From assembly GCA_030606485.1 (NCBI GenBank), contig JAUWGH010000001.1:630001-662000 (forward strand): a stretch of DNA of 32,000 bases, read 5' to 3'. Position numbers and translations under genes: made by a program. Source of the stretch: Promethearchaeota archaeon. Lineage in GTDB: Archaea > Asgardarchaeota > Lokiarchaeia > Sigyniarchaeales > SOKP01. The notes under the pieces are model-generated. The model was not told where the DNA came from. It saw nothing but the letters and a program-made list of their open reading frames with translations, and made no database searches. This document shows positions 16,113 through 29,803 of this stretch, piece by piece (within the stretch, counting starts at the first letter, position 1; every line of letters begins with the position of its first letter).

Positions 16113-17564
16113 TTATTTTGGACCTTTTTTTATTTTTCTCTTTAATAAAACAACAATTGCAAACGTAGATGCTAAAAGAATCAATATGTTATAACCACTA
16201 ATAACTATATCATTGCCATCGCCATCACCATTGCCATTGCCATTTCCATCACCATTGCCGTTATCTTCACCATCGCCATATATTACAAACCACCAATCCC
16301 GATTACCATCAACATCACCATCATCCTGTGGTTTTGGACAAGAACTTCGAGCCCAATTGCCACTGCTTATAATTAATGTGTCATTATCGATAATACAATA
16401 TTTGCAATGTTGAAAAGTAAAATCTTCTGAAGCCCATAAGCCTAGTGCAGTATTATTTTTACTTGGATCATTCTTATCGGTTATTCCAAGCACCGTTAAA
16501 TTATATAAAGACCATCTATTATATGCCTTTTCATACATATTAACTGTATCATTTTCAAGCAAAAGTCGTACCTTTACGCCATCAGCAATTCTATCAAGCA
16601 TAATTCCTAATAAATAAGGTTGGGATAAAGTATATACACTAAGATCAATTGAATTTTCTGCATCATTGATTAATGAAGCGACTACATCATAACAATTATC
16701 AGGAGCTGCAATACAAGAGACGGTCATTTTTCCTGTGAAAGTTGTTGCTTGAAAGTGATTTGTATAAGTTGATAATTGAATTGAATTTGTCTTAGAATCT
16801 GATGATGCACTGCTGGTTCCTGGACCATTATAATCATCTGCAACGTTCCAATCATGATTGAAAAGAGTAATATAATACCCAGCAACATCTACACTCTCAA
16901 TCAGTATTGCAGCTTCTCTATTGTCCCTTAAACTAGTTGGTGAACCATTAATTGAAGATATTAAAACCTTTTTTCCATCGACAATAATCCCTTTATTATG
17001 TAAATCAAAATATTGTGGTGACGTGGCGTCTATTGTTCTAACTGTTATTCCTGCATTCTCCAATGCATCTGCCGTCCCTATTACTTTTGAATCTGTGGTC
17101 TCTTTAAAAATCACACAACAATTTACTCCACGAGCATTCGCTGCAATAATAGCATCAACTAGATCAGTTAAAGTATCATAAATATACATAAATTCTATGT
17201 AAAGAGATTGTTGAGCACTATCAATTAATTCAATTATTTTTGTTTCAGAATTATCTGGAGATAAAATGGGTGTTATACTCATGGTTTTATTAATAAAATC
17301 TTGCTTTGGAAATGGTCCATAGCTACTTCCATAACGCTCCCAACTTGCCGCTAGGCCTAATCCATCATTTTCTGGTACATATGCATATCCATTGCTCCAA
17401 TCCTCCTCAAAAAGTCCACGGAAATAATTAATAACCTGTTGTCCTGCATTTGATTCTCCATCTTGACTTAATTCAAGTTCGGTACAAGACACAGAAGGAT
17501 TAAAATATATTATTGAAATAAAAAAAAGAAGTAATAATAAAGAAATATAAGATTTCTCTTTCAT
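16113..17564 (-). CDS. Secreted/surface phospholipase D-superfamily enzyme with two HKD motifs and a Loki-CTERM-like C-terminal anchor
   Basis: Signal peptide; HNKGIIVD...SSIN (16977-17000) and HCKYCIID...SSGNW (16386-16409); (G-D/N)n linker; ISGY + TM + KRKIKK. Confidence 0.88.
   Translation of the reverse strand: MKEKSYISLLLLLFFISIIYFNPSVSCTELELSQDGESNAGQQVINYFRGLFEEDWSNGYAYVPENDGLGLAASWERYGSSYGPFPKQDFINKTMSITPILSPDNSETKIIELIDSAQQSLYIEFMYIYDTLTDLVDAIIAANARGVNCCVIFKETTDSKVIGTADALENAGITVRTIDATSPQYFDLHNKGIIVDGKKVLISSINGSPTSLRDNREAAILIESVDVAGYYITLFNHDWNVADDYNGPGTSSASSDSKTNSIQLSTYTNHFQATTFTGKMTVSCIAAPDNCYDVVASLINDAENSIDLSVYTLSQPYLLGIMLDRIADGVKVRLLLENDTVNMYEKAYNRWSLYNLTVLGITDKNDPSKNNTALGLWASEDFTFQHCKYCIIDNDTLIISSGNWARSSCPKPQDDGDVDGNRDWWFVIYGDGEDNGNGDGNGNGNGDGDGNDIVISGYNILILLASTFAIVVLLKRKIKKGPK
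16209..16277 (-). repeat. Degenerate 6-bp coding repeat encoding the linker GDGEDNGNGDGNGNGNGDGDGND
   Basis: Repeated (t/a/g)ccat(c/t) units on the + strand, in frame within the PLD gene just before ISGY. Confidence 0.8.
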
Positions 17565-18583: not shown

Positions 18584-19024
18584 TTATACTAAATTATCAA
18601 TGTATATTATTTTAACAACAGATAATAATTCCTCTAATACTTTGTCGATTTCTTCTTCTTTTTTCATATAAACAGGTATGTTCCTTATTTTTCCAATTGC
18701 CAGAGAATAGCAATCAGCAATAGAAATTGGAAAATTACACTTCAGATGAGAGGCTTCATCTCTCAATTCGCTTTCTGAATAAATTATAAAATCTTTTAAA
18801 AATTCTGAGGCATACTTTATCGCATTCTGAAATCCGCTTCGACGACAAAAAATATATTTAAGTTCCATATCAACTAGAGGACTTATATAAAATATCTTGA
18901 CTTGAGGATTTTCTAAAACCTTTTGAGAAAATTTTTTGCCTAAAATCGAATCCTCAAGGAATTCAACTAAAACCCCAGTATCAACTGCGATTGAAGTGAG
19001 TTGAGAATCTTTTTTCTCGTTCAT
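18584..19024 (-). CDS. vapC: PIN-domain (VapC-type) ribonuclease toxin
   Basis: IAVDTGVLV, ELKY, ISIADCYSLAIG acidic PIN motifs; 146 aa; overlaps the upstream antitoxin-like gene by 44 nt. Confidence 0.85.
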   Translation of the reverse strand: MNEKKDSQLTSIAVDTGVLVEFLEDSILGKKFSQKVLENPQVKIFYISPLVDMELKYIFCRRSGFQNAIKYASEFLKDFIIYSESELRDEASHLKCNFPISIADCYSLAIGKIRNIPVYMKKEEEIDKVLEELLSVVKIIYIDNLV

Positions 19025-19348: not shown

Positions 19349-20242
19349 TTATGTAAAAAATAATGAATAAAGGGAAGGAAATTGAATAGATGGTATAAAA
19401 TAAATGAGACTTAATAAATAATACACAAAAAATACTCCAATTGTGAGAACAAAAATAACATCCTTCTTTTTAAAAGGAATTTCTATCAGATTGGTTCGAG
19501 TTTTGTATAAACCAAAGCATCTATTTTCCATTGAAATTGATGTGATATCTCCTTTTCTTAAAATTGAGACCAGAATTGTGATGAGCCTTTCTTTTATGAA
19601 ATTATACGCTTTTTTTATTGTATTGACCTTTTCTCTTCCAAATCCTCTTGCTCTTTGAGCAAGTCCGATTGTTCTTGCCTCCTGTTGTATTAAAGGAATA
19701 TATCGAAGTCCAACCATAAAAGCAAAACTATATTTATAAGAAACGCCAGTTTTCATCAATGCGTAGACAAAATCCTTCATGGAAGTTGTATGGGTAAAAA
19801 TTATTGCAGATAAGAATAGGATAAGGACCCATAATGCGTTCCTTAATGCATAATAAACGGCCAATCTTCTAATCGGTAAAAAAGTAAGATTAAATAAATA
19901 GAATAAAATTTGAGCTTCTTCACTGGGTATTGCGTTAAAGAATATATTTAAGATTATAGAAAAAAGACTTAAGATTAGAATCCATTTAAACTTATAAAAA
20001 ATAGATTTAATTGACATTTTGCTTGACAACGCTAGAAAAAAGGTTAATACAAAAACGATTGAAAGAAAAATCAAGCTCTCGATTGAGAATACAAAAATTG
20101 TAAATAATATCAAGAAAAACAATTTGCTTAAGGGATTTAATTTATGCAAAAAAGAATTGTTTGGAACGTAAGAAAATAAATCCCTTGTCTTATCTAAATT
20201 GAATTGTTTCCTTTTGATTTTTGGTTTTTTGCTTTTAGTCAT
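19349..20242 (-). CDS. ecfT: ECF transporter transmembrane (T) component
   Basis: LHKLNPLSK, GLRYIPLIQQEARTIGLAQRARG, SMENRCF (the two Arg-containing coupling motifs); multiple TMs. Confidence 0.92.
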   Translation of the reverse strand: MTKSKKPKIKRKQFNLDKTRDLFSYVPNNSFLHKLNPLSKLFFLILFTIFVFSIESLIFLSIVFVLTFFLALSSKMSIKSIFYKFKWILILSLFSIILNIFFNAIPSEEAQILFYLFNLTFLPIRRLAVYYALRNALWVLILFLSAIIFTHTTSMKDFVYALMKTGVSYKYSFAFMVGLRYIPLIQQEARTIGLAQRARGFGREKVNTIKKAYNFIKERLITILVSILRKGDITSISMENRCFGLYKTRTNLIEIPFKKKDVIFVLTIGVFFVYYLLSLIYFIPSIQFPSLYSLFFT

Positions 20243-20248
20243 ATCTTT

Positions 20249-21940
20249 TTAGATTTTACCTAATTTTTTATTTATAATATTTAGTAAAGAGATTGGCCCT
20301 AAACTTTGATATTTTTGGAAATATGAATAATTTTCTTCATATTCTATTAAATTACCGTTATCTAACTCAATTATTTTATCCACATGATTTAGTAGTAAAT
20401 GATAATCATGTGAAGCTATAATAATTGTTTTGCCTTTTTGCTGCTCCTGATAAAGTATTGTTATTAATTCATCTATTGTTTTTTGATCTTGACCTATGAA
20501 TGGCTCATCTAATAAAATAATTTCTGGAGCATAAATAAAAATCGAAGATAAATTTAATCTCCTTTTCTGCCCCCAGCTAAGGTTAAATGGATTTCGATCA
20601 TATTCAACATTTCCAACCATGCTCATTAACTGATCTAAATTGTCCTCAGCAATTTGATTTAGGAGATTAAAATTTTTTGGGGCATATAGAATTTCATCTC
20701 TTATTGTATTCTTAAATAGCATATTTTCGGGATTCTGGAAAATAAATCCTATCTTTTCAGCATATTCGTAAAAATCAATTTCTAAAAGATTTTTTCCTTT
20801 ATAATAAACTAGACCCTTAGATGGATTATATAATCCCGCTATTAGGTAAAGCAATGTTGTTTTCCCGCAACCATTATGACCAACTAATCCAATAAAATCT
20901 CCTTTAAAAATTTTTAATGAAATATTATTTAAAGCCATTCTATTGAGGTTAGGGTATTTAAATGAGATATCTTTAAATTCTAAAAGAACTTCGCCTTCCA
21001 TTCCTTCAGAATATTTTTTATGGTTCATAAAATTCTCATAGAGTTTTTTTTTTAATAATTCCAAATTCTTATTCGTTTCATTATTAATCATTTCAATCGC
21101 AGTATCAAAAAACAACGGAATTTCACGTTTTGGGGTTTCCAAGGCAGAAATAAAAAGATCTGGAATCCAAGGGATTCTTAGATTACAAAATTTTAAATCA
21201 TTGAAGTGGTTTCGAAATAGATCATTAATTGAACCTTTAAGTGCGATTTCTCCATCATAATTTAATATTAACAAATAATCAGCAATATCTAATACCTTAG
21301 ATAATCTATGTTCAACAATTATTAGGGATAAATCCAATTCTTTATTTTGATAGAGTTTTTTTAATCGATTCAATAATAAAGTGGAAGATTTCTGGTCTAA
21401 AAAGGCAAAAGGTTCATCCAAAATTAAGATTTTAGGCTTCATTACAAGGTAGGAACAGATTACAACGATTTGCTTTTCTCCTCCACTTAAATCATCAATA
21501 TCTCGATTGATTAAATGCTCAATATTCATAAATTCTACGATATCATCAACTCTTTCGATTATTTCCTCCTTCGGAAGATTTAAATTCTCTAATCCAAAAG
21601 AGATTTCATCTCTAACAGTAAATGTCACTAATTGCTCATCGGGGTTTTGTTTAACTAATCCCACCTGTTTTGATAATTGAGCTAAACTTTGTTCCCAAAC
21701 ACTTAGACCGAGAACTTTTACATCTCCCATCATAAACCCAATTTGTCTAAAAGGAATAATCCCATTTAGGGCATTACATATTGTAGATTTTCCACTTCCG
21801 CTCCCGCCAGCAAGAATTAGAGTCTTTCCCCTTTCCAATTCGAATGATATGTTTTTTACTGCAGGTCTAACACTATTATTATTTCCATATATAAACGTAA
21901 ATCCATCAAATTCTACGGCAAGATTGTTTTGTTTGTACAT
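20249..21940 (-). CDS. ecfA: ECF transporter fused double ATPase (A-A')
   Basis: Walker A GGSGSGKS and GHNGCGKT, Q-loops QNPD/QNPE, signatures LSGGEKQ and LSWGQKR, Walker B LDEPF twice, H-loops. Confidence 0.93.
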   Translation of the reverse strand: MYKQNNLAVEFDGFTFIYGNNNSVRPAVKNISFELERGKTLILAGGSGSGKSTICNALNGIIPFRQIGFMMGDVKVLGLSVWEQSLAQLSKQVGLVKQNPDEQLVTFTVRDEISFGLENLNLPKEEIIERVDDIVEFMNIEHLINRDIDDLSGGEKQIVVICSYLVMKPKILILDEPFAFLDQKSSTLLLNRLKKLYQNKELDLSLIIVEHRLSKVLDIADYLLILNYDGEIALKGSINDLFRNHFNDLKFCNLRIPWIPDLFISALETPKREIPLFFDTAIEMINNETNKNLELLKKKLYENFMNHKKYSEGMEGEVLLEFKDISFKYPNLNRMALNNISLKIFKGDFIGLVGHNGCGKTTLLYLIAGLYNPSKGLVYYKGKNLLEIDFYEYAEKIGFIFQNPENMLFKNTIRDEILYAPKNFNLLNQIAEDNLDQLMSMVGNVEYDRNPFNLSWGQKRRLNLSSIFIYAPEIILLDEPFIGQDQKTIDELITILYQEQQKGKTIIIASHDYHLLLNHVDKIIELDNGNLIEYEENYSYFQKYQSLGPISLLNIINKKLGKI

Positions 21941-21956
21941 ATCTCTTTCAAAATTG

Positions 21957-22634
21957 TTAACTTTTATCTAAATTTATAATCTCATCTGTTTTTACAGTAA
22001 AAATGGCTTGAGCTGCAATAGGTACACCTGCTTTTATTAAGTAGTCTTTAATAACTTTACCTAATAAACCAGCTATAAACACACCTGATAAAAATGCAAA
22101 AATCATTGCTAATATGAATAAAGATATATGAAGAGTAAATAATTTTCCCGAAATATACCAAAAAACGGGAACTTGAGTTATATTTCCAATTCCACCTGCA
22201 ATCCCCCAACCTAATCTTGAATCGCCTTCATTAAGGTGTTCCATAATAAAAAAACCTATAAGTAATGAAGCACCTTCTAATAAATTTATTCCTATAATAA
22301 CTATTCCATAAGAACCTGTTATAAGAAATTCTAATATTCCTTTTGTAAGCATAGAGATAAGAATACCGGGTTTATTTCTTGTTAATCCGTAAAATATAGC
22401 AACCCATATAATGTGATGAGCAGAAGTTAATTGGGTCCCGCCCGTAAGTGGATACCACACTTTTACTAACAGACTAAATGGTATTACACTTGAAATAATG
22501 CCTCCTATAGTCCCAAAAATCGTTGCATATATTAAGGTCCTAATTGAAATTCCAAATTTACTTTTTTCAATTTCTAAGTTTTCTACTCCAGTCCTTTTAA
22601 ATTCTTCTTTTGAGTCTTCAAGATTTTTTTCCAC
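21957..22634 (-). CDS. ECF transporter S component (YkoE/ABC_cobalt-like), operon-dedicated
   Basis: About 6 TMs; PLTGGTQLTSAHHIIW...GLTRNKPG...KGILEFL...G pattern; directly precedes the A-A' and T genes; GTG start with SD. Confidence 0.78.
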   Translation of the reverse strand: MEKNLEDSKEEFKRTGVENLEIEKSKFGISIRTLIYATIFGTIGGIISSVIPFSLLVKVWYPLTGGTQLTSAHHIIWVAIFYGLTRNKPGILISMLTKGILEFLITGSYGIVIIGINLLEGASLLIGFFIMEHLNEGDSRLGWGIAGGIGNITQVPVFWYISGKLFTLHISLFILAMIFAFLSGVFIAGLLGKVIKDYLIKAGVPIAAQAIFTVKTDEIINLDKS

Positions 22635-22642
22635 AGAGTAAA

Positions 22643-22648
22643 ACCTCC
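22643..22648 (-). promoter_or_regulatory. Shine-Dalgarno GGAGGT for the S-component GTG
   Basis: acctcc on the + strand = GGAGGT on the minus strand, 8 nt before GTG 22634. Confidence 0.6.
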
Positions 22649-22655
22649 ATTAATT

Positions 22656-23228
22656 TTAATATACTCTAATTGCAACCACATGTTTTGCAGTGTATATAGT
22701 ATTCCAATCTGGAAACAAACTTCTATTCACTATCCCTTCTATCGGGCCTTTATCCGGTTCTCCTCCCATGGCCATCCCGTTTCTCTCATATGCCAATAAA
22801 ACCAATTCAGGATTTTGTTCAACTAATGAAAAAAGGATATTTCTGCTAGTATATAAATCGCTTGCTTCAAACCGAAACCTTGTTGAATTCGGGTTTAAAC
22901 AATCTTCTTTGTTAAAAATATCCCAAATAACCGCCCCAGAATAATTATCACTCCAAGTATTTCCAAAATCATTAATAAAATAAAATTTTTGATTTATTAC
23001 TTGTTGATAATCGGATTTCAACTGAGTTAATGTGATATTAACTTCTCGTTTTACATTTCCGTATATTTTAATTGTAATTTCAGAGCCGTCATTAGTATAT
23101 TTTTCTACTAATTGTAAATTATAAATTGTTAGACCAATTGATGCACCTATAATTATCCCAAATAAAATAAAAATAGATATATTCCTTTTTGATAAAAAAT
23201 CTTTAATTCTATGTTTTGAATTATTCAT
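22656..23228 (-). CDS. Membrane-anchored sulfite-oxidase/Moco-binding-fold domain protein lacking the Mo-ligating Cys
   Basis: N-terminal TM; IKIYGNVKREVNITLTQLK, YSGAVIWDIF, FRFEASDLY, LLAYERNG, GPI, AKHVVAIRV follow the Oxidored_molyb pattern, but there is no Cys in FYFINDFGNTWS. Confidence 0.72.
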   Translation of the reverse strand: MNNSKHRIKDFLSKRNISIFILFGIIIGASIGLTIYNLQLVEKYTNDGSEITIKIYGNVKREVNITLTQLKSDYQQVINQKFYFINDFGNTWSDNYSGAVIWDIFNKEDCLNPNSTRFRFEASDLYTSRNILFSLVEQNPELVLLAYERNGMAMGGEPDKGPIEGIVNRSLFPDWNTIYTAKHVVAIRVY

Positions 23229-23243
23229 TTTTATAAATAAAAA

Positions 23244-24155
23244 TCAATTATTCTTAATGCGTATAAATTTCTTTTTCCAAATTATAATTAATCCAGTTAA
23301 AAAAATCAAAATCAATAAAGTAAAACCTAATCTATAGCCTGATATTAATGGAGTTGGAAACTCAGAAAAATATAAAGCATAAATCCACGATATTGCGTGA
23401 TCTTCACCTTCTCCTGTACCATATTCATTATCCAATATAGCGATTGTAAATTCATATATAGTTTTTTCTGCGAATTGAACATCATATTGCTCACCAGTTG
23501 TTAATGGTCGGGAAATTTCTATTTGATAACGATTTGTATCATTAAACCAGGTTCCATAAATCATACCTGTTTCTATTTGACTAATTTCTGAATTGTGGGG
23601 ATACCAACCATCATCTCCAAAATATGTATCATAACCGTTATATGAAGAACCGTTTTCTTTTCCTATCCGATACCCCCATTGCCAAGTATCCACATCTCCT
23701 CCTCCATACGGACCAGTCCTCATACCTTGGTAAAATGCCGCGGTATAATTTAACATATTTATGTTCCAACACATTGAAAATTGATCCCAATTACTCAGCG
23801 GAGTTGAATCCTCCCAACTAGCCAAAATAAATAAGTGAGTATCGCTATGGACAAAAGACATATTAACGTACCTTAAAAAAAAATCATCAGAGTAAAAATC
23901 AGAGGCAACGGGTATCAATATGGAATTATTTTTCCCAGGAACATGCCAAAAATCTTCATTATCCCGACCATCAAGAGTAATAATCGCATTTGGGTCATAA
24001 TAGGCATCCAAATGAATAGTATTATGATAATATTGGCAATCTCCTTCACCAGGCCACGAAGATCCCATAATTATAGAAGTAGATACAGCTTGAATTATAA
24101 GAGATATTAAAATTAATAAAAAAAAAAGGATTAGAGATTTTTTATAGAATGCCAT
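23244..24155 (-). CDS. Surface protein with DOMON-like / ethylbenzene dehydrogenase gamma (EbdC)-type heme-binding domain and Loki-CTERM-like anchor
   Basis: Signal peptide; ITLDGRDNEDFW, LFILASWED, DQFSMCW, GMR, VDTWQW, YQIEISRPLTTGEQYDVQF, IAILD...H; ISGY + TM + KKK tail. Confidence 0.72.
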   Translation of the reverse strand: MAFYKKSLILFFLLILISLIIQAVSTSIIMGSSWPGEGDCQYYHNTIHLDAYYDPNAIITLDGRDNEDFWHVPGKNNSILIPVASDFYSDDFFLRYVNMSFVHSDTHLFILASWEDSTPLSNWDQFSMCWNINMLNYTAAFYQGMRTGPYGGGDVDTWQWGYRIGKENGSSYNGYDTYFGDDGWYPHNSEISQIETGMIYGTWFNDTNRYQIEISRPLTTGEQYDVQFAEKTIYEFTIAILDNEYGTGEGEDHAISWIYALYFSEFPTPLISGYRLGFTLLILIFLTGLIIIWKKKFIRIKNN

Positions 24156-24176
24156 TATTCCATCACGATTATATTT

Positions 24177-25280
24177 CTATTTTTCTATATCTATTCTAGT
24201 TAGCCACTTGTTATATCCTTTTTTAGATTGCCCTGGAACTATTAACTTATAAGGACCACCATCAACGAGTTTTAAAGACGTAGGATTTCCAGAACCCACT
24301 TTTTGATGCTGAATCTCTGCATTCACAATCCACATTAGATTGCCCTCTGGGGCATGAATTGAATCCACTGGCATCTTAACTCCAGTATCAGGGATACAAT
24401 CTCCAACCTCATCTAAAGTACAATTGACGATATATCGTTCCACCAATCCTGACTCAATATCTGTTTTATTGTATCCTGAGCTTGGCCAAGAAAATCCGTC
24501 TACACAATTCCATGTAATGTTATAATTTACCACAATATTCATCTCCTTTATGAAATTTTTTAATGTCCTTCCCTTTATTGTGCAATCCCAGTCAAAATAT
24601 TCTGTTCCATTATCATCATACCACCAATGGTATGAATTATAATCACTTGCTCCTTCCATCATTTTAGTCGAATCTATTGTATAATCCAAAATTCCGTTCA
24701 CATAAACTGGAATTACCCATTCAGACGTAATCTCTATATGAGTTATGTTCATGATCGCCGTAGAAGCATCAAGATCGCCCCCAAATAATGAGAAGTTTCC
24801 ATAGGCAGCACCTAACGGAGAATTCTTTAACCAAACATCATTAGCCATTATTCCAATAATTAGAGGGTTTGTTGTTTGAGGATTTTTTACCATATTTCCA
24901 TCGGAATTAATCATAACTCCAACATCTGTATCCAGATTATCGGAATAATTATAAACCTTTACACTCCAAGGAGCATGAAACCCAAAATAATTAAATAATT
25001 CTACGGCATTTACACCAGTTATATTACATTCTTGTCCTGTTGTTTTAGTATCCTCAAATTTTATTTGAGTTAAATCTCCAGATTCAATCAAATCTATTAT
25101 TGTTGAAGCATTTATTGACTTCTCAGTTCCATCCCAATATTTTATTTTGAGATCTTGTAGAGGAGGGGAAGTATCAGATGTTGTCCCAATTTGCGTAATA
25201 AACCATATTCCACCGCTGACTCCAGCAATAATCACAGCGACTACTATTATACTTGTTATAATTAGATTTCTTTTCTCCAA
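24177..25280 (-). CDS. Membrane-anchored extracellular protein with two tandem degenerate sulfite-oxidase-fold domains
   Basis: N-terminal TM anchor, many N-x-S/T sequons. Domain 1 has ITGVNAVELF and IIGIMAND; domain 2 has IKGRTLKNFI, CVDGF and GGPYKLIVPGQSKKGYNKWLTRIDI (cf. G.P.RL..PG...KW...I). TTG start. Confidence 0.65.
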   Translation of the reverse strand: MEKRNLIITSIIVVAVIIAGVSGGIWFITQIGTTSDTSPPLQDLKIKYWDGTEKSINASTIIDLIESGDLTQIKFEDTKTTGQECNITGVNAVELFNYFGFHAPWSVKVYNYSDNLDTDVGVMINSDGNMVKNPQTTNPLIIGIMANDVWLKNSPLGAAYGNFSLFGGDLDASTAIMNITHIEITSEWVIPVYVNGILDYTIDSTKMMEGASDYNSYHWWYDDNGTEYFDWDCTIKGRTLKNFIKEMNIVVNYNITWNCVDGFSWPSSGYNKTDIESGLVERYIVNCTLDEVGDCIPDTGVKMPVDSIHAPEGNLMWIVNAEIQHQKVGSGNPTSLKLVDGGPYKLIVPGQSKKGYNKWLTRIDIEK

Positions 25281-25352: not shown

Positions 25353-26078
25353 TTATTTTTTTAAAATATAGCTAAAGATGGGAATAAAAAGAAAATATTT
25401 GTCATTCTCTATAGCTACATTCATTTTTTTATTTTTAAAATTATGATTAGTCAAAATTTTTTCAAAAAATTTCAGTTCTTTTAATAAATTATCTTTATTC
25501 TTACTCGAAATCCAAGGAACACTTATACAATATCGCTCAACTATCTCGAATTTTTGAGAAAAAAATTGATTCATTTTTCTCCCCACTTCAGGATCGGCTC
25601 CATTATCTTTCAAATTTGAGATTAATGCATCTTTTAAACCTGTTTCTGGAGATTCAATAACCCCTCCATAATCTGGCTCTGCAAGTATTAATAGAATACC
25701 TTCTTTTTTCAAAATCCTATGAATTTCATTGAAACATTTTTCAAGATCCTTAATCCATAAAAATAAATAATGTGTAATAATCACTTCAAATCTCTCATCT
25801 TCGAAGTTATTATTTAAAATATCCATATATTGAAGATTTGCCTTGATGTTCTCTTGATTTAAATTGTCTTTGGCAATTTTTAAACGATGTTCATCAATAT
25901 CAATTCCATATAAATTTAGATTAAATTCTTTCCCAATTTCTTTCAGAAGTGCTCCAGTGCCACAACCAATTTCCAGAAGATTTGTCTTGGTCTCCAGATT
26001 TATTATCTTATAAATATGATTCCTAAATTCATAAGTCCACTTTAATTGTTCGCTGAATCTTATATTCCAATCGATCAT
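25353..26078 (-). CDS. Class I SAM-dependent methyltransferase
   Basis: Motif I LLEIGCGTG, acidic YGIDID, MDI, FEVIITHYLFLWI, ILKKEG, EPDY. Confidence 0.9.
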   Translation of the reverse strand: MIDWNIRFSEQLKWTYEFRNHIYKIINLETKTNLLEIGCGTGALLKEIGKEFNLNLYGIDIDEHRLKIAKDNLNQENIKANLQYMDILNNNFEDERFEVIITHYLFLWIKDLEKCFNEIHRILKKEGILLILAEPDYGGVIESPETGLKDALISNLKDNGADPEVGRKMNQFFSQKFEIVERYCISVPWISSKNKDNLLKELKFFEKILTNHNFKNKKMNVAIENDKYFLFIPIFSYILKK

Positions 26079-26123: not shown

Positions 26124-27515
26124 TTAAAAATTTGCAACATTACAGATTATTTTCTTTTGGTCTATATATAATGGACATCCACCGCCACAGATTCGTAATA
26201 ACTCACATTTTTTGCATTTAGGTTCAATATATTCATGCTTTCTAATGCTTTTAAACAGCTTTGAATTCCAAATAGCATCCCAGTCATCTTTTAATATATT
26301 CCCCACAGGTTCATAGTAAGATTGGCAAGGCAAAACATCTCCATTTGGTTCAATTGCAATGCTTGTATTTGCTGCAGAGCATCTTTTTGGTCCCAAACCA
26401 ATTTCTACTGGATTAATAGAACAATATTGAGTTGGAGTATACCAGATAAATTGCATGTCTAATTTTCGACCTCGATTATTTATCTTGTTTAATATTGGTT
26501 CTAATTCTTCTTCAGCGATGCCGTGCTCAAACTCCTTTCCCTTACCAGAGTAAATTAATCCATTACAAGCAAAAGTTTTTACGTTTAATTCATGAAGAAA
26601 ATTTATTGTATCTTTAATTCCCTCGACGTTATGCTTGCATAATGTAGTATTAGTCATAAAGAAAATATCTTCTTTTTCAAAATTTTTGATTGCTTGAACG
26701 GTTTCATCAAACCCATCTACACCAACCATTTTATTATGGATTTCTTTATCATGAGATTCCAAAGTTATCTGAGCATAATCTAAACCTTTCTGTATTGCTT
26801 GTTTTACTAAATTTTTATCAGCAAATTTCCTTCCATTAGTTATAATCCCCATTACAAAACCTTTCTCTTGCCCATATGCAATCAAATCCAGAAAATCATC
26901 TCTTACTGTTGGTTCTCCTCCCGTTAAGGCTATATGTGGGATTCCAACTTCCCATAATACATCCATAATTTTTTTCATAGACTCTGTATCAAATTCTGGA
27001 AAATCTCGTTCCCTTGCAACATAACAATGTTCGCAATCATTATTACAGTTGTAAGTAATTGCTAAATCAATTCTTAACGGAAATTCTGAAGCTTTAAATG
27101 GCTTTTTAGCGTCTATTCCAATTTGGGAAAAGGGATCAACATCTTCTTCTGATAATAAAAATTCTACTTTATCTAAAAGGGCATTATAATCTTCTTCAAC
27201 CTCCTCCGCTGTTGTCCGATAATATTTTATAAAAAATTCTTGAATCTCTTCCAAAGATTTTCCTTCAATAAATTCCTTGAAATACATCATAGCAAATTGG
27301 TTTAAATAAAGAACATATTTTGCATCAATTATTAGGATTGCTTTGCTATTTTTCAATATTCTTAAGTGAAATTTATGGGTTCCAGTATTTTTAAATTCAA
27401 TTATGTTTGAATAAACTCTCGGAATAGAATCATCAAAAACGAATTTTGGTAATATCTTCTTTTTTAATTTCTTAAAGAATTTTTTTGTTTTTCCTTTGGG
27501 TTTTACTATACTCAT
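26124..27515 (-). CDS. Radical SAM/SPASM enzyme with N-terminal PqqD/RRE-like domain
   Basis: CNNDCEHC, LTGGEP, ITNG; seven-Cys SPASM CSAA...NGDVLPC...CKKC-x5-C-GGG-C...C. N-terminal AILII...LYLNQFA...GKSLEEI..F...Y....EEVEEDYNALLDKV is PqqD-like (3 strands + 3 helices). Confidence 0.92.
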   Translation of the reverse strand: MSIVKPKGKTKKFFKKLKKKILPKFVFDDSIPRVYSNIIEFKNTGTHKFHLRILKNSKAILIIDAKYVLYLNQFAMMYFKEFIEGKSLEEIQEFFIKYYRTTAEEVEEDYNALLDKVEFLLSEEDVDPFSQIGIDAKKPFKASEFPLRIDLAITYNCNNDCEHCYVARERDFPEFDTESMKKIMDVLWEVGIPHIALTGGEPTVRDDFLDLIAYGQEKGFVMGIITNGRKFADKNLVKQAIQKGLDYAQITLESHDKEIHNKMVGVDGFDETVQAIKNFEKEDIFFMTNTTLCKHNVEGIKDTINFLHELNVKTFACNGLIYSGKGKEFEHGIAEEELEPILNKINNRGRKLDMQFIWYTPTQYCSINPVEIGLGPKRCSAANTSIAIEPNGDVLPCQSYYEPVGNILKDDWDAIWNSKLFKSIRKHEYIEPKCKKCELLRICGGGCPLYIDQKKIICNVANF

Positions 27516-27518
27516 CTT

Positions 27519-29423
27519 TTATCTACCTCCTCCTGCACACGCACATGCACAACCAGCACAAGCACAAGCACAAGCGCAACCTCCAGCTCCACCACGACCA
27601 CCACGACCTCCTCTACCACCAGTACTTCTTGGTCGAGGAGGGGCAACTGTATTAACTATACTCTCAGCGAAATTAGTGAAATTCTTAACTATTGTATTGC
27701 TAACATTTTCCATACCCCGAACAATCGAATCTGAGAATGTATGGATATTAATATACTGTTTAGGAAGTAAATTCGCACTTGTAGATCTTCCGGGATGATA
27801 TGTATAGTAATGATGCCGAGGCCAATAATAATGATACCAATAATAACGCGGATACCAATATGGATAATGAATATAATAACGGTGACTTAGATATCGCTCC
27901 GAACGTTTTTCAAATAGGTCATCTAAAACTATCCAATCATATTCATCTTCAATATCTTCAAATTCTATTTCATTTGGCATTTTTTTAATTGTCTCCCATG
28001 CTTGGTTGATCATGTTATCATAGTAATAAGTTGTAGCGTCCGATTCATACCCTCTCATTTTCTTATAGGTTGCTTTTATTAAATCAACTAATAATTTTTC
28101 CAATTTTGCCTTTTTTACAGTCCCTTTATCTGGTCCTTCAGGATCCACCGCTTTTAAAAATTTTCTCTGATATGCTTTCATCTTTTGAATCCCCTTTGTT
28201 GACATAACTTCAAACTTTAATGGGTCAGTTTTAATTACTTTTAAATGACCTGTTCGAATTAACCCAAAAATTATTAGAAAAAGAACTTTATTCAAAGGAG
28301 TATTCTTTATAATAGCCGCTTCTACAACTGTAAGATTTTTATTAACCCCTACACTTTCAATTTTAATCTCTGGTTTCTGATATGGTAATCTAGAACGACT
28401 TATTACTTTATAAATTAAATAACCAATCATTCCAAATCCAGCGATTATAACTCCGAAAAATAATAAGATGAATATAATATCACCAAAAGCACCCCATAAT
28501 ATAAAATAAAAAATCGCTCCAATGAAAAATATCATGAAAAATATACAAACAAGGTCTCCTGGGTTTGAACGTTTCCTAGGTGGGTAATATTTCTTCTTGT
28601 AATTCCTTATATATCTATATGTAAGATAAGAAAAGCCAACTATTAATCCGATTATGCTTATTGTCAATAATATGCTTATAATAAATAATACTACTCTTGG
28701 ATCGGCCGTCCAGCCAATAGATACATCTACAGCATCCTTAGGAAATGAAACCCCATAAGTATATTGTTGCATTTGAACATTTGTTTCAGTCCATGTATAA
28801 ATTAAATAATCGGTGCCATCATGTTCCATGAAACTGTAGCTATCATATTCCCTGTAATGCCATTTAACTTCGTTTCCATTTGTGAAATTTGGTGGAAAAT
28901 AAAAATTAACTTCAAGATATTTATAAGTAGAACAAAAACTAGAACCAAACCAAGTTGGAGAAAATTCAACACTTGCCAAACTTTCATTTTCATAATCGCC
29001 AAAAATCATATTTGGGTTGTTTCCAATCACATAAAGCTGACCAGATTCTCCTGGATCAATATAATGCCCAGTAAGCCATATTTCAACACCAATATCGATG
29101 TATTCTGATACTCTGATATTATGGCTATATATGTCATGTCCATCAATTTTTGCCTTTACACTAGATAAATCATAATCATTAGTCGGAAAGCCAATATCAA
29201 CTACGTTAATCGGATCTGCCCAAGAATGACAAGTAAAGTTAATCCAATATTCAATCGTAATAGACCCATCTAGTTCAATATAAACATTTGTTTTCATATA
29301 ATCAACATCAAAAGAATACGTATAAGCCTTAGCGTTTGTACTGGTCGAAACAATGAAGATTATTGCTAATCCAATAATACTACTATAAATTAACCATTTT
29401 TTGTTCATTTTTTTTCTCACCAC
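27519..29423 (-). CDS. Membrane protein (DUF2207-like: signal peptide, extracellular beta domain, 3 TMs, cytoplasmic domain) with C-terminal RGG repeats and CACACACAGCACACAGGGR tail
   Basis: YSFDVDYMKTNVYIELDGSITIEYWI is the DUF2207-like start; three hydrophobic segments at about aa 243-340; LVVEAAII...LIIFGLIRTGHL; Tyr/His/Trp-rich segment; Cys-Ala tail. Confidence 0.85.
   Translation of the reverse strand: MVRKKMNKKWLIYSSIIGLAIIFIVSTSTNAKAYTYSFDVDYMKTNVYIELDGSITIEYWINFTCHSWADPINVVDIGFPTNDYDLSSVKAKIDGHDIYSHNIRVSEYIDIGVEIWLTGHYIDPGESGQLYVIGNNPNMIFGDYENESLASVEFSPTWFGSSFCSTYKYLEVNFYFPPNFTNGNEVKWHYREYDSYSFMEHDGTDYLIYTWTETNVQMQQYTYGVSFPKDAVDVSIGWTADPRVVLFIISILLTISIIGLIVGFSYLTYRYIRNYKKKYYPPRKRSNPGDLVCIFFMIFFIGAIFYFILWGAFGDIIFILLFFGVIIAGFGMIGYLIYKVISRSRLPYQKPEIKIESVGVNKNLTVVEAAIIKNTPLNKVLFLIIFGLIRTGHLKVIKTDPLKFEVMSTKGIQKMKAYQRKFLKAVDPEGPDKGTVKKAKLEKLLVDLIKATYKKMRGYESDATTYYYDNMINQAWETIKKMPNEIEFEDIEDEYDWIVLDDLFEKRSERYLSHRYYIHYPYWYPRYYWYHYYWPRHHYYTYHPGRSTSANLLPKQYINIHTFSDSIVRGMENVSNTIVKNFTNFAESIVNTVAPPRPRSTGGRGGRGGRGGAGGCACACACAGCACACAGGGR
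27522..27620 (-). repeat. Coding low-complexity repeat: (GGR)3 GGAGG then (CA)4 G (CA)3 GGGR
   Basis: Read codon by codon. It has 7 Cys and mixed synonymous codons (TGT/TGC; GCT/GCA/GCG; GGT/GGA; CGT/AGA). Confidence 0.9.
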
Positions 29424-29803
29424 TTCACTTTATCTTTAGGTAATTTAATTGCTTCCCCACATTTCTCACAATAAACTATTTTTTTTTTCTTCATTTCTTC
29501 TGAAATTTCAAGTGGTGTGCCGCAATTTTTACAAATCATTTCAGATGGTACATATCGTGTCTCTTCTTCCAAATCCTTAGGTTCTTTAACTTTAACAATT
29601 TTATACTTGGTTCTCTGAATTAAACGTAAGATTATAACTAAAAGAGTAATGGCAATAATTATCAATAAGACTCCAATTATCAACCGTAAAACCGTTTGTG
29701 TTGGATCTACGGGGGATGCAATTATATAAACCACACCGAAAAATGTAAGAACCACAAAAACAATTATTGCTATAATTTTTAAAAAGATATTTGAATCACT
29801 CAT
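29417..29803 (-). CDS. Small 2-TM membrane protein with C-terminal cytoplasmic Zn ribbon
   Basis: Two hydrophobic helices, then CKNCG...CEKCG; its stop overlaps the start of the next gene (7-nt overlap). Confidence 0.8.
   Translation of the reverse strand: MSDSNIFLKIIAIIVFVVLTFFGVVYIIASPVDPTQTVLRLIIGVLLIIIAITLLVIILRLIQRTKYKIVKVKEPKDLEEETRYVPSEMICKNCGTPLEISEEMKKKKIVYCEKCGEAIKLPKDKVKW

Follow-up and report, generated by a model that had tools for sequence, protein, structure and literature searches.

What does an enzyme of a peptide-modifying type act on when the gene directly before its own encodes a large membrane protein with a cysteine-rich end? This question is raised by a locus in a 32,000-nucleotide (nt) stretch of the genome of a Promethearchaeota archaeon (assembly GCA_030606485.1, contig JAUWGH010000001.1, positions 630,001 to 662,000; this whole stretch is called the window hereafter, and all positions are given within it). 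There, four closely packed genes, read as open reading frames (ORFs), lie on the minus strand and encode a zinc-ribbon protein, a 634-residue membrane protein with a terminal tail of alternating Cys and Ala residues (the tail protein), an enzyme that joins an RRE domain, a radical S-adenosylmethionine (SAM) core and a SPASM domain, and a methyltransferase. From the linkage and architecture of these genes, we infer that the enzyme modifies the tail of its membrane-protein neighbour in place and that the four genes form a tail-maturation system, a reading to which we give a probability of roughly 55%. The argument is that, apart from the tail, the cassette has no conserved element that is Cys-rich and peptide-like, that the enzyme carries an RRE, and that both are predicted to lie in the cytoplasm, so that the tail would be modified where it stands.

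The first gene of the set (29417..29803) encodes a protein of 128 residues with two transmembrane (TM) helices and a CxxC...CxxC motif, ending in Trp, as judged from the ORF, its hydropathy and weak zinc-ribbon matches. The tail protein gene follows (27519..29423), its TAA stop being separated by 3 nt from the ATG of the enzyme gene (26124..27515, 463 residues), and the methyltransferase gene (25353..26078, 241 residues) lies 45 nt further downstream. An earlier reading of this DNA from its letters and ORFs (the sequence-only reading) had described three tightly coupled genes; the coupling was confirmed, as was the 3-nt spacing between the tail gene and the enzyme gene when the DNA was read again, but the set comprises four genes, the methyltransferase having been missed. 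The overlap of 7 nt that it had noted between the zinc-ribbon and tail genes exists only if the tail protein starts at the GTG at 29423 (634 residues); with the ATG at 29408, which is the start in the public gene call (P0001, 629 residues), the two genes are instead separated by a gap of 8 nt. The zinc-ribbon and tail genes are tightly coupled with either start codon. That no small precursor ORF lies nearby also proved correct, since a separate small Cys-rich ORF was absent from the 21-32 kb region of the window.

The tail protein ends ...GGAGG-CACACACAGCACACAGGGR-stop. The 19-residue tail CACACACAGCACACAGGGR (27522..27578), which we propose as the substrate, is preceded by a Gly/Arg-rich linker (GGRGGRGGRGGAGG; 27579..27623) that varies between lineages in the alignment of relatives. 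The same C-terminal motif was present in all complete homologs found with the full protein, and it was invariant or nearly so in 73 aligned relatives, the Cys residues, the Ala residues and the single Gly spacer all being fixed while the body of the protein drops to 25-30% identity. Because a search by shared words could favour the tail, we also searched 1.84 billion representatives, without a word index, with a query from which the last 21 residues had been removed; among the best 150 matches, 112 had canonical tails and 13 had variant Cys-x-Cys tails, the remaining 25 being mostly fragments that end within the aligned region. A back-translated pattern of the tail was found at no fewer than, and possibly more than, 120 loci (at least 120) in species-representative genomes; the amino acids of tails found in this way are set by the pattern itself, and all locus-based counts given here hold among the matches listed. 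Across 126 tails, the last 17 codons occurred in 124 distinct DNA versions, with synonymous sites scrambled, and 124 DNA versions of one peptide indicate that selection acts on the protein.

Among 124 non-redundant tails, the number of Cys residues was seven in 95, six in 15 and eight in 14. Each of these tails belongs to a large protein or to a split copy of one, never to a stand-alone small ORF, and the short ORFs that carry a tail adjoin the rest of a split tail protein. A variant sub-clade (L143; P0281, P0305, P0311, P0320, P0325, P0337, P0341 and P0346) has longer tails with three Cys-x blocks, in which Val, Ser, Asn or His occupy some positions and the C-terminal ends differ. At the two variant-tail loci that we looked up, a small zinc-ribbon ORF lies upstream and a radical SAM/SPASM gene lies directly downstream, the enzyme at one of them being 41% identical to that of the window. 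Judged by these sequences, the tail is the hallmark of the family.

The AlphaFold2 model of the tail protein (mean pLDDT, the predicted local distance difference test score, of 83) suggests an N-terminal helix, which may be a signal or anchor helix, followed by a beta-sandwich at residues 38-228, within an extracytoplasmic domain (residues 30-238; 28710..29336) modelled at pLDDT >90. Three TM helices are predicted at residues 242-275, 288-308 and 310-344 (TM region, residues 239-342; 28398..28709), and a cytoplasmic domain (residues 343-600; 27624..28397) with a winged-helix-like start is closed by two conserved helices (residues 560-593), the candidate recognition region. The end of the protein (residues 601-634) is disordered in the model, with pLDDT <50 in the tail. 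The first loop between the TM helices is rich in Lys/Arg (7 residues after TM1), 4 such residues follow TM3 and, by the positive-inside rule, this loop and the C-terminal part, including the tail, are predicted to be cytoplasmic, which agrees with the placement in the sequence-only reading. Disordered in the model, cytoplasmic by the positive-inside rule and fixed in sequence, the tail seems to behave like the core peptide of a ribosomally synthesized, post-translationally modified peptide (RiPP). An internal start at a Met located 64 residues from the end, which would give a leader-core-like peptide, was considered and dropped, because this Met is not conserved and is replaced by Ile or Leu in relatives.

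In Foldseek searches against solved structures, the outer beta-sandwich was best matched by Ost1/ribophorin I of the oligosaccharyltransferase, with its luminal domain (E 8e-8, about 237 columns); M1 aminopeptidases were matched as well, with their N-domain. Bacterial members share the fold, so the likeness to Ost1 is not an Asgard-specific, eukaryote-like feature. The earlier description of the protein as 'DUF2207-like' stands only loosely, for its fold, DUF2207 clusters being matched in an ESM Atlas fold search (template-modelling scores of 0.27-0.39), and for weak matches among relatives, 9 of the 73 matching DUF2207_C (best E 0.0078) and two matching DUF2207 (best 0.11). It does not stand for the window protein itself, for which no Pfam or NCBIfam match was found, and none to DUF2207 (PF09972, PF20990) even at E <= 1. 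TIGR04222 was matched by six of the 73 relatives (best E 3.2e-7), and the window's genome gave no match to this model at E <= 1; in Leptolinea sp. HRD-7, the best TIGR04222 match of the genome scores 21.9 bits, where the cut-off is 43, and falls in the domain that follows the TM helices of its tail protein. These matches suggest that the tail protein family is a distant relative of DUF2207/TIGR04222 and not a member.

The enzyme belongs to the radical SAM superfamily (PF04055, 80.2 bits against a cut-off of 29.5; 26526..27074) and contains a SPASM domain (PF13186, 48.3 bits against 21.5; 26142..26441), in line with the sequence-only reading, which had assigned both and which had counted the seven SPASM Cys residues that we could all locate. 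The three Cys residues of the CxxxCxxC motif (C157, C161 and C164) are conserved in 62 orthologs, and this motif is also present in 92 of the 93 primary enzymes of other loci. The seven-Cys SPASM pattern (C379, C397, C434, C437, C443, C447 and C458), together with G392, is likewise conserved in the 62 orthologs, as is an eighth Cys residue, C365, upstream of it. For the N-terminal domain (residues 30-125; 27141..27428), previously described as PqqD/RRE-like, the AlphaFold2 model (mean pLDDT 84.7, predicted template-modelling score 0.85) gives strands at residues 34-71 and then helices at 73-122, at pLDDT 86-97, and 48 of the 62 orthologs match PF05402 (PqqD; best 1.9e-8). It is by fold and by its orthologs, not by the hidden Markov model score of the window copy, that this domain appears to be an RRE.

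The whole enzyme model aligned in Foldseek to SuiB, SkfB and CteB (5v1t, 6efn and 5why) over 456-470 columns (E 4e-18 to 1e-14), at 16-19% sequence identity, and SkfB, PqqE and SuiB ranked first in a profile search of solved structures. SuiB, SkfB and CteB share the three-part architecture of the enzyme, whereas their substrates are small leader-core peptides, and the enzyme remains below the cut-off of every NCBIfam model of these families. In the whole of NCBIfam, 76 families matched below their thresholds and none above, the best being AhbD, NirJ2, PqqE, MftC, StsB and AlbA; the scores were 88 bits against a cut-off of 850 for AlbA (NF012164), 66 against 300 for SkfB (TIGR04403) and 98.6 against 625 for StsB (NF045574). 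The enzyme is a distinct, unnamed family of the RRE, radical SAM and SPASM type. No curated NCBIfam or Pfam model naming the pair of tail protein and enzyme was found, which answers a check that had been proposed with the sequence-only reading.

A second proposed check concerned how often tail-bearing homologs have a radical SAM gene beside them. We considered tail loci with at least 600 nt of downstream DNA as judgeable and counted enzyme homologs that start within 900 nt on the same strand. An enzyme ortholog was directly downstream in 102 of 112 such loci, mostly at E 1e-100 to 1e-124, and in one further locus tandem tail genes precede the enzyme. They come from Chloroflexota, Acidobacteriota, Planctomycetota, Zixibacteria, Aminicenantes, Fermentibacteria, Coatesbacteria, Clostridia and Asgard archaea. 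Among 41 genomes (that of the window and 40 relatives), 14 encode the tail protein, and 13 of these also have the enzyme ortholog; in the fourteenth (G004), the tail gene lies at a contig end. Neither protein was found in 26 genomes, and the last one (G026) lacks the tail protein and has a weaker, partial enzyme match with 36% identity, which is probably a paralog. Related genomes are not independent, so we give no co-occurrence statistic; the patchy presence within the family fits gain or loss as a unit. On the neighbouring enzyme, the RRE fold and the topology of the tail, the computable conditions under which the sequence-only reading was to fail, that reading held.

One sister family (G027, G029, G031 and G033; loci L011, L012 and L134-L137) has its zinc-ribbon and tail genes in one place and its enzyme and methyltransferase genes in another. 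Both gene pairs are kept in all four genomes, the methyltransferase gene adjoining the enzyme gene at three loci out of four. The system thus acts like two modules that can be separated and yet are both retained. In FastTree phylogenies built for the enzyme and for the body of the tail protein with its tail removed, the Asgard sequences fall on one side of a branch with support of 98 and 91, respectively, and the patristic distances of the two trees are correlated (r = 0.90; 0.76 within Chloroflexota). This agreement fits co-inheritance and argues against recent inter-domain transfer; it does not prove interaction.

In many bacterial loci (L013-L132, many of them from Chloroflexota), the tail gene is followed, about 1.4 kb downstream, by another radical-SAM-like gene, with the methyltransferase after it. 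This second gene has no CxxxCxxC motif in 59 of 62 cases, with a median of two Cys residues, and such a Cys-less paralog is absent from the Asgard window. One genome (G037:C572:2369-5135, partly in L009) has two tandem copies of the enzyme itself after the tail gene, with 48% and 57% identity to the window enzyme, the first of them with an internal TAA. In a sister-family enzyme (L134, G033:C1:3006858-3008204), we considered a selenocysteine and found it unsupported, as the ORF simply ends at an in-frame TGA; this TGA immediately precedes the site of the last conserved SPASM Cys, has a Cys codon after it, and could be a truncation, an assembly error or a read-through.

The two outer genes of the set also recur. 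A small CxxC...CxxC ORF ends at the start of the tail gene in 83 of 98 loci with enough upstream DNA; the zinc-ribbon protein has look-alike unnamed clusters in Chloroflexota, and its zinc ribbon is predicted to be cytoplasmic. The methyltransferase is a class I SAM-dependent enzyme (PF08241, Methyltransf_11, 73.5 bits against 21.2) that reaches the cut-off of no specific NCBIfam family (best BioC, 61 bits against 185), and it recurs downstream of the enzyme in many loci. Its solved relatives include the peptide-tailoring LahSB, BpumL and MccD (E 1e-10 to 1e-6) beside lipid head-group enzymes, all at low scores, the peptide-tailoring matches covering only the shared SAM-binding core. It is plausible that the methyltransferase adds a late methylation step, perhaps at an end of the tail.

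We hypothesized that the tail protein is anchored in the membrane with its beta-sandwich outside and a cytoplasmic domain that ends in the flexible, alternating Cys/Ala tail. The RRE of the enzyme would grip a segment of the tail protein, for which the conserved pre-tail helices are the likely candidate, and radical SAM chemistry with two auxiliary iron-sulfur clusters would modify the Cys residues of the tail. The most likely product would be a thioether linking a Cys sulfur to a carbon of Ala or Gly, since thioethers are what most often results when characterised RRE-SPASM enzymes act on Cys-rich cores. The tail may fold back at its single central Gly, with position i opposite position 18-i, giving a ladder of cross-links. 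In this putative hairpin register, each pair would consist of Cys with Ala, or of Cys or Ala with Gly, and tails with six and eight Cys residues would keep the pairing, the extra N-terminal units facing GGG; the register would explain the fixed Ala residues, the lone Gly and the GGG. A subsequent step would fall to the methyltransferase, with the zinc-ribbon protein as a putative partner in the membrane. Co-folding of the enzyme (with SAM and three 4Fe-4S clusters) and the last 81 residues of the tail protein scored 0.17 and 0.02, with a mark of 0.32, which speaks neither for nor against this arrangement.

The hypothesis can be carried further, to up to seven Cys-to-carbon thioethers across the hairpin that would yield a rigid, membrane-tethered structure of a new kind, possibly a protein-borne cofactor that binds metal or is redox-active. 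The system would then be one branch of a wider TIGR04222/DUF2207_C-type class, whose Cys tails are matured by radical SAM enzymes here and by MNIO enzymes elsewhere. We regard this extended form as tentative and would not expect all of it to hold.

Among the closest known systems, a chemical precedent is StsB of Streptomyces sparsogenes, which links Cys2, Cys4 and Cys6 of StsA to Gly15, Gly13 and Gly11, respectively, across a hairpin by sulfur-to-alpha-carbon bonds (PMC10288494). As in the present system, a radical SAM/SPASM enzyme and an RRE act together in StsB/StsC/StsA on a core with Cys at every second position (PMC10288494), and the StsB family is among the sub-threshold matches given above. 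In contrast, StsA occurs as a small free peptide, with the RRE on a protein of its own, whereas here the core would end a 634-residue membrane protein; moreover, the putative hairpin has Cys residues on both strands, whereas the CxCxC of StsA faces GxGxG. An archaeal RRE/radical SAM/SPASM enzyme, CrpC of Methanococcus voltae, installs thioethers on CrpA, a large Cys-rich protein encoded next to it (PMC13692751). CrpA is, however, soluble and built of ten 17-residue repeats with CxxQ/D motifs, and the CrpC/CrpA system has no membrane protein, zinc-ribbon partner or methyltransferase; the family of CrpC, TIGR04463, is absent from the 25 best sub-threshold matches of the window enzyme. A radical SAM enzyme that forms several intra-protein cross-links in a whole subunit is QhpD, acting on QhpC of quinohemoprotein amine dehydrogenase, as summarised in PMC7876137. 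QhpC, however, is small and soluble, belongs to a periplasmic enzyme and has a known role in a cofactor, and it has neither a Cys-Ala repeat nor a membrane anchor.

The closest idea in print is a proposal, made in a 2025 survey, that subsets of TIGR04222 membrane proteins are substrates of MNIO (DUF692) enzymes (PMC12452194). RiPP-type chemistry on a membrane protein, offered as a new idea in the sequence-only reading, has thus already been published as a proposal for a related family. The likeness lies in the polytopic membrane proteins, their unstructured, Cys-containing C-terminal tails and the adjacent RiPP-type Cys-modifying enzyme. MNIO enzymes are, however, not radical SAM enzymes, the TIGR04222 tails are variable, Ser/Gly-rich and predicted to be periplasmic, and the association is loose, a third of the genomes being without an MNIO. 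In the published literature, we found no paper that describes the present system, contains the tail sequence or joins radical SAM, RRE and Asgard.

Several points weigh against modification of the tail in place. The window copy of the RRE has no match to PF05402 at E <= 0.01, and the best NCBIfam scores of the enzyme are to tetrapyrrole enzymes, far below their cut-offs. The eight conserved SPASM Cys residues may mean that both auxiliary clusters are fully ligated, unlike those of CteB, in which a Cys of the substrate binds at an open cluster site. Nine of the 112 judgeable loci have no enzyme directly downstream, and linkage with correlated trees is expected for any operon partners or for genes that follow the species tree. 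Finally, Cys-x-Cys runs are classic metal sites, and the tail could work unmodified.

This last point leads to the alternative that survives best, namely that the tail is a metal or iron-sulfur site that undergoes no covalent change, the enzyme being its partner for another reason, for example to receive or repair clusters, or the tail serving as ligand to a cluster of the enzyme. Seven Cys residues at i, i+2 spacing resemble metallothionein-like sites, a zinc ribbon is present in the partner protein, the hosts live as anaerobes in sulfidic sediments, and the eight SPASM Cys residues of the enzyme are conserved. Nevertheless, the x positions of such sites usually tolerate change, whereas here the Ala residues, the Gly spacer and the terminal GGGR do not vary between domains of life; in addition, an RRE domain is typical of peptide-modifying enzymes, and a methyltransferase travels with the enzyme. 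We consider an unmodified metal site rather unlikely.

Less probable still, at poor odds in our judgement, is that the tail protein only recruits the enzyme to the membrane, its C-terminal region being gripped by the RRE, and that the true substrate of enzyme and methyltransferase is a membrane lipid, a quinone or a tetrapyrrole. It is to AhbD and NirJ-type enzymes that the best family scores belong (TIGR04545, TIGR04055 and TIGR04051), the lipid-modifying GDGT-MAS is among the fold matches of the enzyme, and low-scoring matches of the methyltransferase are to phosphoethanolamine, quinone and cyclopropane-fatty-acid methyltransferases. The AhbD/NirJ matches, at 139, 128.7 and 102.9 bits, are nevertheless far below the cut-offs of 500, 500 and 515, which places the enzyme outside these tetrapyrrole families, and they are confined to the core (residues 152-445); the enzyme model also has an RRE-like domain. 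Like the methyltransferase scores, also far below cut-offs, the AhbD/NirJ matches reflect a shared core fold. The full-length structural matches are to peptide maturases, and a tether would need no invariant 19-residue Cys-Ala sequence.

That the modified tail is cut off behind the Gly-rich linker to become a small free RiPP, with the large protein as a giant leader, as the sequence-only reading had also envisaged, is the least credible alternative: a GG does stand directly before the first Cys in the window and the conserved helices upstream of the tail fit a leader-core logic. This reading is nevertheless weakened, as only 51 of the 124 non-redundant tails have GG in front of the first Cys (the others having HS, SS, RS and similar), no protease or exporter recurs in the loci whose other genes were read, and the body of the protein, with its outer domain and three TM helices, is itself conserved. 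The usual marks of a RiPP, a small precursor and release by a protease, are accordingly not those of this system, in which there is no small ORF, the GG is unconserved and the tails sit on large proteins.

Upstream of the zinc-ribbon gene lies an AT-rich intergenic stretch with, by eye only, a TATA-like TTTATAAT about 30-37 nt before the ATG, and beyond this stretch a Sir2 gene is found on the opposite strand. Downstream of the methyltransferase (19349-25280, minus strand), the first two genes encode secreted or membrane proteins with no assigned family, one of them weakly matching an ethylbenzene-dehydrogenase-like heme domain, and further on there are a weak molybdopterin-oxidoreductase-like ORF, an ORF without a family and a transporter of the energy-coupling factor type (double ABC ATPase and CbiQ). 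The two genes at 23244-25280 were left out of the system because they are absent from the other cassettes examined. Also on the minus strand, and unrelated to the Cys-Ala tail system, are a protein that combines two PLD-like domains with a TrmB-regulator-like region (16113-17564) and, close to it, a PIN-domain protein (18584-19024).

The stretch is present in DNA sequencing runs from cold-seep and marine sediment, from about a dozen studies. Of the metatranscriptomes, three runs gave no cover, and one gave two short contigs with 95-98% identity, at 26918-27299 in the enzyme gene and at 28044-28472 in the tail gene, a weak hint of transcription in a relative, with DNA carry-over possible. Cultured carriers of the system are Ornatilinea apprima P3M-1 and Leptolinea sp. 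HRD-7.

What is new here is the profile of co-occurrence in Asgard genomes, the arrangement as two unlinked modules, the search made with the tail removed, the comparison of the trees and the proposed hairpin register. The system is not eukaryote-like, and in the trees a single branch separates the Asgard copies from those of bacteria. RRE radical SAM maturases are known mainly as makers of small peptides, and here one is tied to the end of a full-size polytopic membrane protein, with a 19-residue tail that is more conserved than nearly anything else in the accessory genes of these genomes. With a candidate substrate in hand, a direct test is simple. If the tail is the substrate, RiPP-type chemistry would extend to membrane proteins, and widespread anaerobes would carry a new protein modification.

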